A stretch of DNA of 64,000 nt from the NCBI GenBank assembly GCA_963782055.1, contig CAWAIF010000003.1, positions 1,152,001-1,216,000 on the forward strand, given 5' to 3'. A model generated the notes under the pieces. It saw only the letters and a program-made list of their open reading frames with translations. It was not told the origin of the DNA and made no database searches. Position numbers and translations under genes: made by a program. Positions 137-31,804 of this stretch are shown here, one piece after another. This stretch comes from an uncultured delta proteobacterium (GTDB lineage: Bacteria > Myxococcota_A > Polyangia > Polyangiales > Polyangiaceae). Position 1 is the first letter of the stretch. Every line of letters starts with the position of its first letter.

Positions 137-874
137 TCATCCCCGCGAGCAACGCGCGGCGACGGCCTCCATCACCTCGATCGTGGACTCGACGAGCCAG
201 AGATCGACGTTGGGGGTGCCTCCGTACAAGACCCCCTCGTCGTGGAGCACCAGGTACACCGGGGACTCGCCTGCGTCCCCGGGTCGGCGCAGGACACAGT
301 GGAAGTCGGAGTCGATCCGGGCAACGGGAACCGCGATGGCCCCCGGACTCAGCTCGGGTGGCGGCTCGGAGAACTCGTCCAGCAGTGTCGCCAGCTCGTC
401 GGAGAGCGCGCGGATCTCGTCCACATCACAGGTGACGAGATCCCTCCCGATGGCGAGGGATCCATGGCCCAGGAGCCTCCGGTGGCTCGGGGCGAGTCTG
501 GCGCCGAGGCTACCTTCGAGGCGGTCGATCGCGGCAGCGTCGGCCGGCGTCCCCTCGCGGCGCAGCAGCTGGGCAACATCGCCGATGCGTGACCGAAGCG
601 CATCCGCGTGTCCGGCCGTGCGCATCTGGTCCACCCACTGCACGGTGGCGGCCTCGAGTGCATCGAGGGACACCCCGGCGCCGAGCCGGGCGGCGCACTG
701 CTGGGTGATGGCGTCGGGATCCCCAGCGGCGGCAGCGGCGTCTCGGGCCTGCGTCTCCAGACGGGCCATGCCGGCGGTCCCCGCGGCCCGACTCTCGGCC
801 GCTCGTTCGGGCGACACGATCCCGGCTGCTGCCAGGAGGTCTGCCATCGACTTCTTCCTGCGCTCGTCGGCCAC
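137..874 (-). CDS. SMI1/KNR4 (SUKH)-like protein, possible immunity protein
   Basis: C-terminal half has 'PADAAAIDRLEGSLGARLAPSHRRLL' (SUKH N-terminal helix pattern) and 'GESPVYLVLHDEG'; start uncertain. Confidence 0.55.
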   Translation of the reverse strand: MADERRKKSMADLLAAAGIVSPERAAESRAAGTAGMARLETQARDAAAAAGDPDAITQQCAARLGAGVSLDALEAATVQWVDQMRTAGHADALRSRIGDVAQLLRREGTPADAAAIDRLEGSLGARLAPSHRRLLGHGSLAIGRDLVTCDVDEIRALSDELATLLDEFSEPPPELSPGAIAVPVARIDSDFHCVLRRPGDAGESPVYLVLHDEGVLYGGTPNVDLWLVESTIEVMEAVAARCSRG

Positions 875-1028: not shown

Positions 1029-2285
1029 ATGAGCTGGCGAACGGTGGGCGGAGTGAGCGCGCTGGTCGCGGCGGCGCTCGGGGCGAGCTGCAAGCACCCT
1101 CCTCCCCCGGCTGCCGTGGACGCGGGGCCGGCGGCGAGCATCACGGCTGCGCCCGTCGCCACGCGCGAGTCGACGGCCAGCGCCGCGCCGCCGGTGCCGA
1201 CGCCTGCGGCCTCGGTGGCCCCCGCCACGCTGCCCGGGGACGCGGGCGCCGGAGCGTGCGCGCTCGTCTGGGGGCCGGCGAAGCTGGCGACGACGGGGCC
1301 GGTGGCGCTCGCGGCCACCGCGACCGGCGTCGATGTGGTGCAGAACGACAACGGGGCGGCGGTGCACGTGGCGTTCGCGCTGGGGAAGCTGGACCCGAAG
1401 GCGAAGCCGGTCGCGCCGCCCGCGCCGGCGGACGCTCGGCGCGTCTCGCGGCAGCCGTGCGCGCTCGCCGGGAGTGTTGCGTTCTGCACGGATCGGTCCG
1501 GCGGGGTGCACCGCGCGCCGGTCGGCGGGGGCGCCGGTCCAGTCGTCGGGCACGCGCGGCCGGGCGCGTGGGTGGCCGCGTCGCTCGTGGCGGGCAAGCC
1601 GGTGGTCGCCTTCCTGCGCGATCGCACGACGAGCGAGGGCAACACGCAGGAGGCGTACCTCGTCGACGCCGACGGCGCGGAGCAGCGGCTGTCGGAGGAC
1701 GGCAGCGGGGCAACGTTCGTGGCGCTCGCGCCGCGCGGGGAGGGCGCGATCGCGGTGTACGTCGACGCGCGCATGGCGATGTCGCCGGTGCACGCGCGCA
1801 CGGTCGCCGGGGCGAAGCCGGTGCTCGGCAAGGACGAGGTGCTCTTCATCGGCGGCAGCGCGGAGGCGACGACGCGCCTCGCGGTCGGCGTGCAGGCGGG
1901 CGGGCCGGCCTTCGCGCTGGTGCCCATCTCGCACGATCTGGCCTTCTCGCTCGCCATCGCGAGGATGGATGCCGGTCCCACGACGGACGCGCCGACGACG
2001 TGGTCGGACTACCCGAACGGGCTGGACCCGGCGCCCATCGCGGCGACGGCGGGCGCGAAGCGGGTGACGGTGGCCCGGGTGCGCCCGTCGGAGGCGCGGT
2101 TCGGCGCGCCGCGGGTGCTGGAGCTCGGACGCGTCGACGCGGGCGGCGGCTTCGCGCCGCTGGGCCTCGTGTCGACGCACGGCGCGGCGAGCCACGTGGC
2201 GATCGTGGAGGATCGCGGCGGAGGGATCGTGATCGGCTACACCGACGGCGCGGGGAGCTGGGTGGAGCGGAGGAGCTGCAAGTAG
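1029..2285 (+). CDS. Hypothetical lipoprotein with Pro/Ala-rich linker and beta-rich C-terminal region
   Basis: ATG at 1029 gives MSWRTVGGVSALVAAALGASC (lipobox-like); GC3-biased frame; stop TAG 2283-2285. Confidence 0.7.
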   Translation: MSWRTVGGVSALVAAALGASCKHPPPPAAVDAGPAASITAAPVATRESTASAAPPVPTPAASVAPATLPGDAGAGACALVWGPAKLATTGPVALAATATGVDVVQNDNGAAVHVAFALGKLDPKAKPVAPPAPADARRVSRQPCALAGSVAFCTDRSGGVHRAPVGGGAGPVVGHARPGAWVAASLVAGKPVVAFLRDRTTSEGNTQEAYLVDADGAEQRLSEDGSGATFVALAPRGEGAIAVYVDARMAMSPVHARTVAGAKPVLGKDEVLFIGGSAEATTRLAVGVQAGGPAFALVPISHDLAFSLAIARMDAGPTTDAPTTWSDYPNGLDPAPIAATAGAKRVTVARVRPSEARFGAPRVLELGRVDAGGGFAPLGLVSTHGAASHVAIVEDRGGGIVIGYTDGAGSWVERRSCK

Positions 2286-2287
2286 AG

Positions 2288-2464
2288 AGAGAGGGGGGAT
2301 GCCCCTCCTCGCGTGTGCTCGGGCCCATGCTCGCTCGCGCGCGCGCCGGCCGATGGGTGCAGGGTGCACGGGCTCCGGCGCGCGCGCGAGCTTGCGCGTG
2401 GGCCCTGCGCGCACGCGTCCTCCCCACGATGTCGCGCTCCGCGCGCCATACGGGGAGGAAGGTG
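2288..2464 (+). repeat. Palindromic dispersed repeat family A, copy 1
   Basis: Perfect 17-bp inverted repeat GCTCGCGCGCGCGCCGG (2333-2349) / CCGGCGCGCGCGCGAGC (2375-2391) inside a longer imperfect stem, followed by a second hairpin TCCTCCCC...GGGGAGGA; near-identical to 26896-27032 and homologous in reverse to 3278-3442. Confidence 0.9.
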
Positions 2465-3093
2465 TGTCCGACGTGCGGGCGGACGAAGTCGAGCACCGAG
2501 CGGCCGGCGCGGAAGCCGTGGGCGCACACGTGCAGCGGGACGTGCGCCAGGATGCCGTCGAGCAGCGCGCGCTGCAGCGCGCGCAGGCGTGGCTTGGGGA
2601 TCTCCAGCAGGCGCGCGCCGCCGCCGGGCTTCGGCAGCCAGCGGTACCGGTAGTGGCGCATGCGCTGCTCCGGGGCGAAGCGGGAGAGCCCGCGACGGTC
2701 GGCGAGCGCGTCGAGCTCGCGCACCTCCACGCCCAGGAACGTCGCAAGATCGCCGGTCGTGGGGATGGGCGGCACCTCGAAGAGCGTCGGCCGCATCCGG
2801 GGGATCCGGAAGAACGGGCGCTCCACGCGCAGGGCGTAATGCGGCAGGTCCTGCCACGCACGGCTCTCCGTCAGGGCGCGCGCGAGCGCGTCGCGGGCGT
2901 CGTGCGGCGGCGAGGGGAAGCGGCTGCGGGCGAAGCGGACCAGGCCGCGCAGCCCGCGCGGCCGCCTGTCCAGCGCGAGGGCGTCCTCCAGGCGGGCGAG
3001 CATCGCCTGCTCGTCCCAGTCGCCGGCAAGCATGGCGTCGGCGAGGCGTCTGGCGAGGAGGTCGGTCGTGAAAGAGCGTGCGGCGCGCGTCAA
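2465..3093 (-). pseudogene. Retron-type reverse transcriptase, 3'-truncated (N-terminal extension plus RT motifs 0-2 only)
   Basis: 'GDLATFLGVEVRELDALAD...HYRYRWLPKPGGGARLLEIPKPRLRALQRALLDGILAHVPLHVCAHGFRAGRSVLDFVRPHVG' matches retron RT motifs; homology stops at repeat A copy 1, before the D-x-x-D-F-F-P-S and YADD motifs; start TTG 3093 or ATG 3033. Confidence 0.85.
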
Positions 3094-3231
3094 CGAGACC
3101 CGTCGTGCACGAGCAGCACTGCGCCGCAGCCGCAGATCGGGCTCGTGCCATGAGATGCCCAAGTAAGGAGTTTCCCCCGGAGTAACCCCGGAGAGGCGAT
3201 GCGAATCGCCGGCTTGATCACGCGCCGCACG
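3077..3231 (-). ncRNA. Putative retron msr-msd non-coding RNA
   Basis: 11-bp a1/a2-like inverted repeat CGTGCGGCGCG (3077-3087) / CGCGCCGCACG (3221-3231); candidate branch G at 3219 on the minus strand; two short stem-loops (3195-3210, ~3174-3194); long msd-like hairpin GCACGAGC...CTGCG/CGCAG...GCTCGTGC (3107-3148); directly upstream of the RT. Confidence 0.7.
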
Positions 3232-3277
3232 ACGTCAGTCTATTCGTATCTCCGTTCGAGGGAAGTACGAGGCCGGG

Positions 3278-3442
3278 CACCACCCTCCCCGTGTGGCGCG
3301 CGGAGCGCGACACCGTGGGGAGGGCGGCCACGCGCAGGGCTCGCGCGCAAGCTCGCGTGCGCGCCGGAGCATGTGTAGTTTGCACATGGCGGCGGCGCGC
3401 GCGCGAGCGAGCACGAGCCCGAGCATGGCCGGGGAGGGGCAG
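3278..3442 (-). repeat. Palindromic dispersed repeat family A, copy 2 (inverted, more diverged)
   Basis: Reverse complement aligns end to end with 2300-2464 (GCCCCTCC...GCTCGCTCGCGCGCGCGCC...GAGCTTGCGCG...GTCGCGCTCCGCGCGCCA.ACGGGGAGG). Confidence 0.85.
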
Positions 3443-4678
3443 CTAATTCCCCACCAGACCCAGCCAGTACGTCTTGCTCGTCCCGAGGGTGCTCTCGATC
3501 CAGAAGGGCGACGCCCCGAAGGAGCTCTTCGCCAGCGCCTTGATCGTGAGGTTCAGCTTGTCGCCGTTCTGCCCCTGGCTCTGGTCGAAGGTGAACGAGA
3601 GCGCCGCGGCGCCGCCGAAGAAGGCGCTGGAGAGGTCCAGGGCCTTCACCGTCCAAGGGCCGCTCGTCGGGCCGTCGCTGTACAGGTCCAGCTCGATCGT
3701 CTTGGACTGGCCGATGGGGATCTTCACGCCGCGGTTCTGGAAGGAGCCGATGGGGGAGCCGATGACCGAGATGGTGTCGGGCAGGACGGGCGCCGAGTTG
3801 AAGTAGGGGCTCGGCGCGTCGGGCTCGCACGGGCCGTGGCCGGCCGCGGCCGACGCGTTGGACCACACGCGCTGCACCAGGTTGTCGACGCCCGTGGGGC
3901 GGTAGAAGGAGTCGGGGAAGTAGGCGCACACGTCGCCAATCTCCCCGCCGGCGAGGATGGCCCACGCCTTGTCGTCGATGTCGGTGTAGGCGGGCTTGTT
4001 GTTGGGGTACGGGTCCGTCGCCGCCTCGACGAACTCGTGCGACGCCTCGGCGGAGACCTGATCCATCGCGCTCGCCTGGCCCTGCGGCGGGCACCTCCCG
4101 ACGACCGTGTAGATGACCTCGGTGGTGCCATCCATCAGGTAGTCGCCGTGGTAGCCCTGGTAGTCGCTGCACAGGCTGCCGCCGCCCATGGTCACGTCGG
4201 TGCCCGTCGGGTAGTAGACGACGTAGAGGGTGTTGCCGTCCGGCTGGGGGAAGCCGTTGCCCGCCTTGATCTTCGCGGTGAGCCACGTCTGCACGTCGGT
4301 GTCGCTGAGCGACGCGGGGGGCGTCTCGGCGAGGTGCATCGGAGCGGTGGCGGTGAGCTCGCCCACGCCGTACTCCGAGACCGCGCCCGCCCAGTACGCC
4401 TTCGCCGCGACGAGCTGCGTGACGAAGTTGTCCAGGCTGGACTCGAGCGGATCGCCCTGGAAGGAGATGGGCACCAGCTTCGGCGCGGTCATCACCGGGC
4501 CGCCCTTGGTGACCGCCTTGGGCATCGGCGGGTGGTCGGCGGGGTACGCGCTCCCCGCGTCGCCGCCGCCGTCGTCGCCCGCGTCGGGCGTGCCGCCGTC
4601 GTCGGTGGGGGTGGACGCGCTGTCGCTGCACGCGACGAGCGCCATCGCGAGACCAAGGAAGAGGATGGAGCGCATCAC
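3443..4678 (-). CDS. Lipoprotein with 'SHEFVEAATDP' motif (EXORDIUM/Phi-1-like or metallopeptidase-like domain)
   Basis: Signal MRSILFLGLAMALVAC; 'CSDYQGYHG' and 'SHEFVEAATDP...GGEIGDVC' motifs. Confidence 0.7.
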   Translation of the reverse strand: MMRSILFLGLAMALVACSDSASTPTDDGGTPDAGDDGGGDAGSAYPADHPPMPKAVTKGGPVMTAPKLVPISFQGDPLESSLDNFVTQLVAAKAYWAGAVSEYGVGELTATAPMHLAETPPASLSDTDVQTWLTAKIKAGNGFPQPDGNTLYVVYYPTGTDVTMGGGSLCSDYQGYHGDYLMDGTTEVIYTVVGRCPPQGQASAMDQVSAEASHEFVEAATDPYPNNKPAYTDIDDKAWAILAGGEIGDVCAYFPDSFYRPTGVDNLVQRVWSNASAAAGHGPCEPDAPSPYFNSAPVLPDTISVIGSPIGSFQNRGVKIPIGQSKTIELDLYSDGPTSGPWTVKALDLSSAFFGGAAALSFTFDQSQGQNGDKLNLTIKALAKSSFGASPFWIESTLGTSKTYWLGLVGN

Positions 4679-11418: not shown

Positions 11419-13398
11419 TCACCGCGGTCGGCCCTTGCGGTGGGGCTTGGGGGGTCGCCGGATCACGCGCGTGCCGCCGGTCGAGCGCGGCGTCTCCACC
11501 TTGCGCGTGCTCTTGCGCGGGGGCGGAGCGGGCCGCTCTTCCTTGCTCGAGGTCTCCAGCTTGCGCGTGCTCCTGCGCGGGGGCGGAGCGGGCCGCTCTT
11601 CCTTGCTCGAGGTCTCCAGCTTGCGCGTGCTCCTGCGCGGGGGCGGCGTGGGCGCGCGCTCGGTCGCGGGCTGCTCGCGCAGCACCTTCACGCGCGGATC
11701 GCGCGGGTCGGGACGGCCGGCGGCCTCGGCGAAGCGCTCGGCCACCGCGGCGGACACGTCGACGATCGAGTAGCTCCGCTCGACGCTGATCGCGCCGATG
11801 TCCTTGCCCTGGATGCCGCCGCGCCGGCACAGCATGGCGAGCACCCGGCGCGCGTCGGCGCCGTGCTGGCCGCCCCACGTCACGCGGAAGCGTGTCCAGG
11901 CGCCGGGCGCGCCCGGGCCCGCCTCGCGCCGGGGGGGCCGCGCGTCGGGGTGAACCGGGGGCCGTCGCGGCGCGAGGGCGTCGGGGTAGGCCGGGGGGCG
12001 TCGCGGCGCGGGGGCGTCCGGATGCGGCGCGTCCCGACGTGTGTGCGCGTCGCGCGCCGTCGCCCGCGGCGCCGTGTGGGCGACCGGCACGGCGCGGATG
12101 TCCCGCGGCTGCGCGGCGCCGAAGAGGCGTCCGCGCGCCAGCAGCCGCGCCAGTACGCGCGAGCGCGGCTCCTCCTTGGCGAGGCGCTTCGCGAGCGCCC
12201 AGATGGACTCGTCGATGCCGGCGTCCGGCGCCTCGCCCGTCAGCTCGGCGAAGAGGCGCTCCGCCGCCGCCCTGCGCAGCTCCTCCGCCGTGGGCACCGG
12301 CTCGATCCGCCAGCGCACCTTCGCCCGCGAGAGCAGGCCGGTGACGCGCCGGAGCGCCGCCGGCGCCGCGAGCACCGAGCTCGTCCCCTGCCGGCCCGCG
12401 CGCCCGGTCCGGCCGCTGCGGTGCGTGTACGTGTCGGCGTCCCCCGGCGGCTCGGCGTGGATGACGCGCCCGATGTCCTGCACGTCGATCCCGCGCGCGG
12501 CGACGTCGGTCGCCACCAGAGCCTGGATCGCCCCGCGCTTGAAGGCGGCGAGGGCGCGGTCGCGCTCCGGCTGATCCATGTCGCCGGAGAGCGAGCCGAT
12601 GGCGAAGCCCGCCGCCTGCAGCAGCGCGGAGAGCTCGGCGACGTCGGCGCGGGTGCGCACGAAGACGAGCGACGGCGCGTCGGGCGTCGCGAGCAGCAGG
12701 TTGACGATGGCGTCCAGCCGCTGGTGCGACTGCACCACGTGGATGAGGTGCTCGATGTCGGTGTTGGCCGCCCCGAGCGGTGTCCCCTCGACGAACGCGG
12801 GATCGGTCTGCACGCGGTCGGCGAGGGCTCGGACCTCGCGCGGGAAGGTCGCCGAGACCAGGATGGTCCGTCGCTCCGCCGGGGCCTTGGCCAGGATGGC
12901 GTCGATGTCCTCCTTGAAGCCCATGTCCAGCATGCGATCGGCCTCGTCCAGGACGACGGCGCGCACCGACGCGGTCTCCAGTCCGCCGCGCTCGAGGTGA
13001 TCGCGGAGCCTGCCGGGCGTCCCGACGACGACGGCCGGCTTGCGCGCGAGCGCGCGGTGCTCGTCCCGGTAGCTGGAGCCGCCGGTGACCGACGTCACCT
13101 CCGCGCCGAGCGGCGCGAAGAACCACCGCAGCTCCTGCTCCACCTGCTTGGCCAGCTCGCGCGTGGGCGCGATCAGCAGGGCGCGCGGCGAGCCGGCGTC
13201 GCGGTCGGCGACGACGTCGCGGATGGCGATGCCCACCGCCACCGTCTTGCCCGAGCCCGTCTGCGAGGTGATGCGCAGATCGCGGCCCGCGAGCTCGGGG
13301 CTCAGCACGGCCTCCTGCACCGGCGTGAGCGTGTCGTAGCCTCTGGCCGCGAGCGCGGAGGCGAGCTCGGGCCCCAGGGATTCGTGGATGTCGGTCAT
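11419..13398 (-). CDS. DEAD-box RNA helicase with DbpA-type RNA-binding domain and basic tail
   Basis: Q motif 'LTPVQ', 'SQTGSGKT', 'PTRELA', 'DEAD', 'SAT', '[10 protein letters not shown]'; C-terminal RBD 'GKDIGAISV'. Confidence 0.93.
11493..11647 (-). repeat. 60-bp in-frame tandem repeat (~2.5 copies) in the helicase tail
   Basis: Encodes [20 protein letters not shown] twice plus [15 protein letters not shown] copies nearly identical. Confidence 0.9.
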
Positions 13399-26895: not shown

Positions 26896-27071
26896 GAGAG
26901 GGAGGGGGGCCCCTCCTCGCGTGTGCTCGGGCCCATGCTCGCTCGCGCGCGCGCCGTCGATGGGTGCAGGGTGCACGGGCTCTGGCGCGCGCGCGAGCTT
27001 GCGCGTGGGCCCTGCGCGCACGCGTCCTCCCCCGGCCCATCGCTCGCTGTCGCTCGCTCGGGCGGGGAGGA
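26896..27071 (+). repeat. Palindromic dispersed repeat family A, copy 3
   Basis: Near-identical to 2288-2425, then a variant terminal hairpin TCCTCCCC...GGGGAGGA. Confidence 0.9.
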
Positions 27072-27152
27072 TGTTCGGGGCGCTGGTGACGGGCTGTGGA
27101 CGGTAGAAACGGTGGGAACGGGCCCTCCCCCGCGAATGGCCTCCCCTCTCTG

Positions 27153-27282
27153 TTCTTCCTTCACCACCACGCGCGGCGGATGCGGCGAAAGGACGCGACG
27201 CGATCGGAGGCGGCGCTGTGGCAGGAGCTCCGGGGGGCGGCGGTGCGGCGGGGTGAAGTTTCGGCGGCAGCACGTGCTGGGC
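27153..27282 (+). pseudogene. DUF559 (Vsr-like PD-(D/E)xK endonuclease) N-terminal fragment, frameshifted and truncated
   Basis: 'HARRMRRKDATRSEAALWQELRG', then after a +1 shift in the G6 run (27232-27237) 'RRCGGVKFRRQHVLG'; the expected 'YIVDF...LVVEVDG' is absent. Confidence 0.7.
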
Positions 27283-27290
27283 TCAGCTCG

Positions 27291-30052: not shown

Positions 30053-30900
30053 GCCAGGAGCAGATCGCCAAGCTGGAGAGCTTGCTGGAGCGCATCGTTC
30101 GCAACGCGGCGCTGCCGCGCATGCCTCACGTGGAGGCCGCCGCCGCGGGCGAGGAGGCGACCGAGGCGCCCATCCCGACGGTGCCGCCTTCCGCCGACGC
30201 GCAGGTGGCGCTGGAGCAGGAGCGCGAGCCGGAGGCGCCCGCCGCCATCGTTGCCGAGGAGAGCCGCTCGCGTCTGGTGGCCGCCGAGCCGGCCGAGCCG
30301 GAGGAGCTGGGCGAAGAGGTGCTGGAGCTGGACGATCGTCACATCGTCCACGAGGAAGAGGGCGAGGCCCCCGCCGTCGAGGTGGTGATGGAGGAGGCGG
30401 AGGTCGAGGTGGCGGAGCCGCCGCCCTCGTCGCGCCGCGCCATCGCCGAGCCGATGGAGGCCGCGGGCCCGGAGATTGAGATCCCGCCCGCGCCGATGAC
30501 GCCGCCGCCCGAGTCGGGCAAGCAGGTCGCCGCCCAGTCCGACTTCGAGGACTTCACCGGCGTCCGCGAGGCCAAGAAGCAGGAGGCGCCCCCCGAGGAG
30601 GAGCCGATCCCCCTCGCGTCGATGCGCACCGCCGAGGCGAAGCCCGCCCAGGAGATGGAAGCGGAGCTGCCGCCGGCGAAGGCGCCGGGCGAGTACAGCG
30701 CCGACCTCGCGCCGCCGACGCCCATGCGCACCGGCACCGCGCCGTCGATGACGGCGGTCACGGCGCCCGCCCCGGTCAAGCCGGAGATCACGCAGGCCGC
30801 CGCCCCCACGGCCACATCGGTCGCGAAGATGGAGGGCGCCGTCACCGCCTTCGCGCCGAAGAACTTCGGCGAGCTGCTCGACGCCACGCTGGCGCTGTAG
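30049..30900 (+). CDS. Acidic, Pro/Ala/Glu-rich disordered protein with short helical termini
   Basis: ATGA overlap with the upstream gene; 'IAKLESLLERIVRN' ... 'FGELLDATLAL'. Confidence 0.7.
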   Translation: MSQEQIAKLESLLERIVRNAALPRMPHVEAAAAGEEATEAPIPTVPPSADAQVALEQEREPEAPAAIVAEESRSRLVAAEPAEPEELGEEVLELDDRHIVHEEEGEAPAVEVVMEEAEVEVAEPPPSSRRAIAEPMEAAGPEIEIPPAPMTPPPESGKQVAAQSDFEDFTGVREAKKQEAPPEEEPIPLASMRTAEAKPAQEMEAELPPAKAPGEYSADLAPPTPMRTGTAPSMTAVTAPAPVKPEITQAAAPTATSVAKMEGAVTAFAPKNFGELLDATLAL

Positions 30901-30901
30901 T

Positions 30902-31804
30902 TCAGACCAGCCACTCCACCTTCGCGGAGCGGAGCCACGTGGTCTGCCGGCGGGCGAAGACGCGCGTCGCGCGGACGATGGTGTCGCGCAGCTCGGCGCG
31001 CGGCAGGTCCCCGCGCACGCAGGCGGCGACCTCCTTGTAGCCCACCGATCCCATCGCCCTCGCGTCTCTCAGGCCGTCGTCCAGCAGCGCGCGCACCTCC
31101 TGCTCCCATCCGGCGGCGAGGAAGGCGTCGACGCGCGCGGCGATGCGCGCCGTCAGCTCCGCCGGCTCCCGTCGCGGGGCGAAGAGCAGCGCCTCGTGGC
31201 GCGCCCGCGCGAAGCCGTGCGCCGCGTGCAGGTCGCTCAATCGTTGACCCGTCAACTGAACCACCTCCAGCGCGCGGCTCACCCGCACCACGTCGTTGGG
31301 GTGCAGCCGCGCCGCCGACGCAGGGTCGACCTTCGCCAGCTCGGCGTGGAGCGCGGCACGCCCTTCCTTCTCCACCCGCGCGCGGTGCGCCTCCCGCAGC
31401 GGCTCGCTGGCCGGCGGCGCCGCGACGAGCCCCTGCACCAGCGCCTTCACCCAGAGGAAGGTGCCGCCGCACACGACGGGCACGCGCCCGCGCGCGCGGA
31501 TGTCCTCCAGCGCGCGGTCGGCGCGCGCCGCCCACCGCGCCGCGTCGATCGCGTCGCGCGGGTCCAGGATGGAGATCAGGTGGTGCGGCGCGCGCGCGAG
31601 CTCCTCCGCCGTGGGCTTGCCCGATCCCACGTCGAACCGGCGGTAGACCTGCACGCTGTCGGCGCTGACGATCTCGCCGCCCAGCCGCTCCGCCACGCGC
31701 ACCGCCAGCTCGGTCTTGCCGGAGGCCGTCGGCCCGACGACGCACACCAGCGCAGCGGGCGCCGCGGCGCTCGCCTCGAGCACGCGCTCCGCGGCGCGGT
31801 CCAT
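30902..31804 (-). CDS. miaA: tRNA dimethylallyltransferase
   Basis: 'VGPTASGKT', 'SADSVQVYR', 'GGTFLWVKAL', 'HPNDVVRVSRALEV', 'FARRQTTW'. Confidence 0.93.
   Translation of the reverse strand: MDRAAERVLEASAAAPAALVCVVGPTASGKTELAVRVAERLGGEIVSADSVQVYRRFDVGSGKPTAEELARAPHHLISILDPRDAIDAARWAARADRALEDIRARGRVPVVCGGTFLWVKALVQGLVAAPPASEPLREAHRARVEKEGRAALHAELAKVDPASAARLHPNDVVRVSRALEVVQLTGQRLSDLHAAHGFARARHEALLFAPRREPAELTARIAARVDAFLAAGWEQEVRALLDDGLRDARAMGSVGYKEVAACVRGDLPRAELRDTIVRATRVFARRQTTWLRSAKVEWLV

Follow-up and report, generated by a model that had tools for sequence, protein, structure and literature searches.

How did half of a retron come to lie between two inverted copies of a palindromic repeat, in the gap between two convergent genes? 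This question is raised by positions 2,288 to 3,442 of the window, our term for the whole 64,000-nucleotide (nt) stretch analysed (C3:1152001-1216000). The window belongs to the three-contig genome of an uncultured member of the Polyangiaceae (7.58 Mb, 72% GC), and the assembly is 97% complete. A sequence-only reading had offered two answers. Either the repeats act as the ends of a non-autonomous unit that captures cargo, or the repeat amputated a resident retron. We found that the repeats are the 5' ends of a polar mobile element, which carries a gene for a DUF559 (probably Vsr-like) nuclease in its full form. These repeats matter more than the retron. On balance, we favour an explanation where two element ends were anchored independently; the retron was trapped in between, and a deletion at the ragged end of the left copy truncated it. 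Of the two earlier answers, the second fits best, with the retron reverse transcriptase (RT) gene cut at the repeat edge.

Layout of the locus and of the element

The flanking genes are gene A (1029..2285, plus strand; stop codon 2283-2285) and gene B (3443..4675, minus strand; stop codon 3443-3445). In each case, the TAG codon anchors one repeat. Gene A encodes a putative lipoprotein, gene B a lipoprotein from a large paralog family, and neither has a Pfam match. The genes had been described as two convergent lipoprotein genes. The stops and the convergence hold, but the lipobox is canonical (LVAC) only in the right-hand gene and loose (LGASC) in the left-hand one. The inverted ~165-bp repeats are present where they had been placed. 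A repeat search paired 2357-2464 with 3278-3385 (108 nt, 83% identity) and 2300-2348 with 3393-3441 (49 nt, 86%), and BLASTN gave 81.8% identity over 165 nt. Both copies are strongly self-complementary. Folded as single-stranded DNA, the left and right repeats gave z scores of -7.2 and -7.1, beyond all of 200 shuffles each.

The left repeat (2302..2464, plus strand) consists of CCCCTCC, a long hairpin 1 and a short hairpin 2, and ends ~5 nt past the latter. It is separated from the stop codon of gene A by 16 nt, a purine-rich linker (AGAGAGAGGGGGGATG; 2286..2301, plus strand). The right repeat (3278..3442, minus strand) has a linker of 3 nt on the gene B side, CCCCTCC at 3439 and the same two hairpins. 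Its ragged 3' tail (3250..3277, minus strand; end approximate, by eye) abuts the retron upstream region and is common to the repeat copy at C3:5595600. The inter-arm DNA is 813 nt long, and its minus strand carries the retron non-coding RNA (ncRNA) and the 5' part of the RT gene.

Profile and pattern searches of the genome found 66 copies of the repeat, full and partial. There are 15 DUF559 loci, and 14 of these have a repeat on the same strand, 221-359 nt upstream. The full form reads as repeat, spacer, a third hairpin that sequesters the ribosome site and the ATG, DUF559 gene and ragged 3' end. Eleven DUF559 genes are intact and encode products of 122-130 amino acids (aa), with invariant YIVDF and EVDGGxH motifs. 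The protein matches PDB entry 3hrl (7e-16). Acidic residues and a histidine (D, E, D, H) are invariant in all 11; note that the likeness to Vsr is drawn from the DUF559 and 3hrl matches. A single-sequence AlphaFold model (pLDDT 51) was too poor to use. DUF559 occurs in each of the six genus relatives, with 8-23 matches per genome, and the layout is the same at the six loci read upstream.

The element has a fixed 5' end and is polar. By home-made gene calls, 44 of 66 copies start no more than 30 nt past the stop of a co-oriented gene, where uniform intergenic placement predicts 5.5%. The linkers of 43 anchored copies (0-29 nt) are unlike normal post-stop DNA, with G or A at 535 of 585 bases (91%). 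Conversely, the 3' ends are ragged and form a continuum that starts directly past hairpin 2 and extends to where DUF559 ends. The third copy in the window (26910..27290, plus strand) is a case in point. Here, the repeat follows a stop codon, an internal deletion has removed hairpin 3, and the copy ends in a 5' stub of DUF559 that runs into unrelated DNA (stub end approximate, by eye). This end within DUF559 is the same kind of cut as that at the left repeat. Across 49 copies of hairpin 1, 99% of cells are paired and 12 of 32 pairs have two-sided changes, so that compensatory change preserves this hairpin. While neighbouring pairs co-vary, two T-G mispairs are fixed, in 48 and 49 of the 49 copies. 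These mispairs may relate to mismatch recognition of the Vsr type.

The linkage suggests that DUF559 could mobilise the element. Two other mobilisers were considered and rejected. A RAYT was one, since a search for Y1/RAYT transposases gave no match in the genome. The retron was the other; a fixed 5' end is the opposite of what retroposition produces, and none of ten related retron loci has the repeat. Some further observations concern the family. A metagenome scan with a strain-specific pattern returned one locus (L038:1068-1240), where the repeat is directly behind a TAG with no linker; the preceding gene resembles that for ribosomal protein S1, by eye. Two broken DUF559 genes (C3:1912285-1912700 and C2:552248-552700) are both interrupted at the same position by an almost identical palindrome of ~70 nt, possibly a second small mobile element.

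The retron between the repeats

The sequence-only reading had recognised a retron ncRNA and a truncated RT between the repeats, and both are there. The ncRNA (3077..3231, minus strand) has a1/a2 arms that form a perfect 11 bp match (3077-3087 with 3221-3231), two msr-type hairpins and a long msd-type hairpin. Across six homologous regions, 23 of 40 predicted pairs are changed on both sides. None of 500 shuffles reached 23, and slid controls gave 4-10. Note that this test leans in favour of the structure, because one alignment served both to derive and to test it. No Rfam family covers the ncRNA; with E values up to 1, only chance miRNA matches appeared.

The RT fragment (2467..3069, minus strand; 201 codons) matches PADLOC RT_other (7.6e-50) over model positions 52-247 of 481. 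The RTs of full-length relatives, mostly about 430-460 aa, match RT_other or RT_outgroup. The fragment ends in RPHVG at about residue 200 of 430, before the LPQG and YADD motifs. As had been noticed, homology stops at the repeat boundary, within about 5 nt of the left repeat end. A search for the missing C-terminal half beside another repeat copy had been proposed; this half was not found anywhere in the genome, and with a full-length relative as the query, residues 1-207 were recovered here, along with distant RTs only. In addition, the aligned start codon is ACG, where relatives have ATG, although an in-frame TTG occurs eight codons upstream. Hence, with no catalytic motifs, no remainder in the genome and an altered start, the retron is non-functional. 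It is a dead remnant, and an ordinary one. The GC content at third codon positions (0.96) is similar to that of host genes and, together with the ACG codon, fits an old decayed resident.

The retron had also been described as a defence-type module. This found no support, because the neighbours of full-length relatives belong to unrelated families, with no effector common to the eight loci compared (short or unannotated effectors could escape such a comparison). Stand-alone retron cassettes, with msr-msd and RT but no conserved partner gene, are mentioned in PMC7736814. The neighbourhoods of the eight loci, with no shared effector, fit this description. The copy studied here is alike in lacking a conserved partner gene but differs in having no catalytic half. 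The closest retron in the genus (L002:189-1785, G002:C85) is also broken, by frameshifts, and begins directly after a Y1 transposase gene. The genome has 13 RT matches. Eight of these score identically (C3:1993752, 2003506, 2765038, 3170145, 4456120, 5274567, 5379624 and 6984743) and look like a recently spread RT element.

Might the truncation be an assembly artefact, with the repeat wrongly joined at 2464 to the interior of an RT gene that is in fact intact? The break does coincide with the repeat edge and no reads bridge 2464. One public read run contains 9% of words, its contigs cover scraps, and none of those listed spans the junction, so this run counts neither for nor against an artefact. 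We regard mis-assembly as highly improbable. The second half of the RT was not found in a three-contig assembly of this completeness, no other copy exceeds 95-96% identity to the left repeat, and the aligned start codon of the RT is altered too.

Inward-facing pairs, filled sites and empty sites

The retron locus is one of five inward-facing repeat pairs within 2 kb. Chance predicts 0.31-0.33 and, under either null, none of 20,000 simulations reached five. For close pairs in any orientation, the count is seven against 1.0 expected. The predicted enrichment of inverted pairs, as opposed to scattered single copies, was therefore borne out, as was the prediction that their cargo varies. The five pairs contain the retron piece, a broken DUF559 gene, a broken DUF559 gene with an rve fragment and, in the remaining two cases, genes for a Stig1-repeat lipoprotein and a short protein without a Pfam match. 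In all five pairs, both arms follow the stops of convergent genes.

We examined ten inward pairs in relatives. For six, the flanking genes are adjacent and convergent in our genome, separated by gaps of 1, 1, 4, 9, 50 and 149 nt (the 149-nt case has an extra gene in the relative). The other four comprise one local inversion, two pairs with flanks that are not adjacent here and one untestable case. In the two non-adjacent cases, orthology is unsure because one flank each is only 42-47% identical. The 50-nt junction corresponds to a 44-kb island in a relative (G001:C11:1471275-1515077; L142-L144), inside an inward pair. Only 5 of 40 island genes have reciprocal orthologs, compared to 989 of 2315 overall. 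Filled and empty versions of the same junctions therefore indicate that pairs mark places of DNA addition. Relatives also have complete elements arranged head-to-head; among 73 DUF559 matches, six pairs face inward at distances of up to 2.5 kb, and a further such pair was seen elsewhere. At L050, L056 and L063 (G006), and L045 and L052 (G004), complete or nearly complete elements are fused near their DUF559 3' ends. The fusion at L050 forms a palindrome, and that at L063 coincides with a local inversion. One empty site is in the window, where a convergent 1-nt gap at 30900-30902 (C3:1182900/1182902) matches an inward pair of G002 (L041). At L041, the filled site, the first ~20 nt of the element occur about six times in tandem.

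Logically, these data might suit a composite arrangement, where an inverted pair forms the two ends of a non-autonomous unit that is cut or copied with its cargo. Pair enrichment, differing contents and the filled and empty sites, up to the 44-kb island, would all fit. However, the arms do not behave as co-inherited ends. In a ranking of each arm's relatives, its partner comes 6th-30th of 48, and partners resemble each other no more than typical copies do (53rd-85th percentile over all copy pairs). The nearest copies to the left repeat (91-95% identical) are elsewhere in the genome, and one still leads into DUF559. The nearest copy to the right repeat is C3:5595600 (90%), not the left arm. Similarly, for two pairs, the DUF559-bearing arm is closest to an unpaired copy. 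No 4-mer is common to the outside of both arms at the retron locus, and no target duplication was evident by eye at four filled and empty site pairs. Within the genome, no near-identical second copy exists for any of the five cargos, and no arm-cargo-arm block occurs twice. Furthermore, only 10 of 66 copies are in inward pairs; about 56 are outside any such pair below 2 kb. We conclude that a composite unit is improbable, and the claim that the pair forms the ends of one moving cargo unit is not supported.

The explanation that we favour would work as follows. Copies insert, we suggest, directly behind stop codons and in the orientation of the gene. Consequently, convergent genes receive inward-facing pairs, and the stretch between their ragged ends could acquire, lose or rearrange DNA. 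At the retron locus, one copy would have settled behind gene A and another behind gene B, with a stand-alone retron ending up between them. A deletion, from just past hairpin 2 of the left copy into the middle of the RT, may then have removed the RT 3' half. The same deletion probably took the left copy's own nuclease gene. In line with this, a near relative of the left copy still leads into DUF559, yet the left copy stops ~5 nt past hairpin 2.

Incomplete copying, rather than deletion, is a second way to cut the RT. Here, an element would serve as the template for extending a break at a gene 3' end, with copying from the element's 5' end onwards and sometimes on into the DNA that flanks the donor element. 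The right arm and the retron would have been copied together from a donor site until copying stopped mid-RT, and the free end then joined to a left arm that had been extended on its own. This would be true cargo capture, though from one end and with assembly on site. In favour of this model, the retron and the right arm share an orientation, and the retron starts about 20 nt past the tail of that arm. Fixed 5' and ragged 3' ends, separately descended arms and double occupancy of 1-9 nt junctions are also consistent. The non-native purine linkers, and the tandem copies at L041, resemble repeated re-priming. Conversely, a search of the genome found no donor retron copy, none of ten related retron loci has an adjoining repeat (best E 0.19) and no cargo recurs. 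In two of the five pairs, the cargo is a whole gene that ends near an arm, as a resident gene would. Hence, we consider this model unlikely, albeit worth keeping in view, and return to deletion between independently anchored ends.

In five of five genus relatives, gene A has a single ortholog, which is followed by the ortholog of C3:1287031 (methyltransferase-like by motif). Gene B, in all five, is between orthologs of C3:5596983-5598341 and C3:5580475. In our genome, the first of these has a repeat behind its own stop. Since none of the five relatives has genes A and B side by side, the retron locus requires an extra rearrangement. The comparison of filled and empty sites, which had been proposed for this locus, thus speaks for the family, at six of the ten relatives' pairs, but not for the retron locus itself. 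A block of ~120 kb (C3:1165395-1286990, from window position 13395) separates gene A from its usual 3' neighbour. The genes at the ends of this block are adjacent in G001, and the block resembles a circularly permuted segment. Elsewhere in the window, an open reading frame at 137-874 (minus strand) has a weak SMI1/KNR4 match (E 0.041), under the cut-off.

None of eight testable repeat-bearing genes kept its 3' neighbour, compared to 480 of 789 other genes (Fisher P 0.0006; about 0.01 against gap-matched strata, by hand). Note that this test covers 8 of 46 genes and 2.4 of 7.7 Mb of one relative, with home-made gene calls. The contrast suggested that the repeats are simply rearrangement breakpoints. 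We set this aside, as it is weakened by the empty sites and the small sample.

The same contrast bears on a further possibility. The repeats could be RNA hairpins, kept by the host at gene 3' ends as terminators or stability elements and spread by gene conversion. DUF559 would then be a passenger and the retron unrelated debris. Post-stop position, polarity and compensatory pairing fit an RNA role equally well, and REPs are likewise mostly downstream of genes (PMC3733652). Among the 11 intact DUF559 copies, the ratio of nonsynonymous to synonymous change (dN/dS) is 0.63, and this weak constraint fits too. Yet occupied sites vary between relatives, nearly all DUF559 loci are repeat-linked and repeat-bearing genes lose their 3' neighbours. 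We judge a host-kept hairpin to be quite improbable.

Several observations weigh against the explanation that we favour. The weak constraint on DUF559 is one. Another is that other mobilisers are plentiful in the genome, with 20 Y2 transposase matches besides the RT matches. Given seven close pairs, the inward bias is marginal (P 0.046), and the signal is mostly one of clustering. Only one of the genome's five pairs has an empty site, in one of three relatives with an ortholog; for the other four, no empty site appeared in the loci seen, the fifth pair being checked on one flank only. For the retron locus, genes A and B are adjacent in none of the five relatives, and none has an empty site. 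No close strain is among the genomes compared, so the order of events at the locus is unobserved. The junction at 2464 is known from the assembly alone. Finally, the model does not account for the double occupancy of one junction.

Relation to known systems and meaning

The repeats had been likened to REP/REPIN-type palindromes. In REP/REPIN-RAYT systems, repetitive extragenic hairpins form over-represented inverted doublets and are linked to a nuclease gene, with RAYTs described as single-copy (PMC3116915, PMC3733652). Our family is similar, with hairpin repeats mostly after genes, enriched inverted doublets and a linked nuclease gene. Even so, REP/REPIN is the wrong family. There is no Y1/RAYT match in the genome and the linked gene is multicopy DUF559. 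A GTAG within 10 nt, near the 5' end or hairpin foot, occurs in only 8 of 58 copies (CGTC tags were uncounted). Furthermore, the members of a pair are separated by 0.6-1.0 kb (by 44 kb in one relative), enclose unrelated DNA and descend separately.

Miniature inverted-repeat transposable elements (MITEs) and composite transposons (PMC10969869) also have inverted ends around passenger DNA, and filled and empty sites. Unlike these, our arms are neither near-identical nor co-inherited, there is no target duplication at the retron locus and no transposase in either arm there, and no block occurs twice in the genome. Vsr-like homing endonucleases (PMC2677866) probably share with DUF559 a small nuclease fold of the Vsr type on mobile DNA, and hairpins upstream of the open reading frame are mentioned for them. 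They are found at split-intein loci and in group I introns, with conserved sites and separate DNA-binding modules. In contrast, DUF559 is a bare domain of 122-130 aa, at 15 loci behind unrelated genes, with no single homing site. The accessible part of PMC2677866 does not mention DUF559. Among BoxC/PIT/TM triplex motifs (PMC4666352), a CCCTCNCCC...GGGNGAGGG-like stem resembles hairpin 2. These motifs are linked to local genomic variability; for TMECO, the same source gives no strand bias and no mobile-element link. The TMECO consensus had no match in our genome.

IS91 and ISCR elements move by one-ended rolling-circle transposition, using a Y2 HUH transposase, and have one fixed and one ragged end, with adjacent DNA reshuffled. 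The element described here is alike in its ends, but the linked gene is DUF559, not Y2. IS91-like DNA adjoins a few element copies rather than most. It was seen by eye after DUF559 at C3:2260400-2260800 and 2267800-2268200, among several copies, and as best hits in relatives at L048, L053 and L062.

In the literature searched, coverage of which is incomplete, we found no description of DUF559 together with hairpin repeats. Tentatively, and with rather more doubt than confidence, the element could represent a mobile class without DDE or HUH enzymes. DUF559 would nick the element's own hairpin, perhaps at the fixed T-G mispairs of hairpin 1, and breaks at gene 3' ends would each be extended by independent copying. 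That the mechanism is categorically new is a comparably doubtful proposition. If such a class exists, inward pairs would be built in place, trapping or copying the DNA between them, such as half a retron or a 44-kb island. The stops of convergent genes would then be programmable entry points for new DNA.

What this locus contributes is polarity, the stop-codon rule, separately descended arms and the evidence from empty sites. A domain of unknown function, DUF559, is tied to a mobile element with a targeting rule, behind stops and oriented with the gene. The linkage offers a direct assay of DUF559 function. Since insertion occurs without gene breakage, the element could also serve as a tool. 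The element tends to settle on both flanks of a junction between convergent genes, which then acquires and loses DNA. It may be one origin of islands and of gene-order decay in these large GC-rich genomes.
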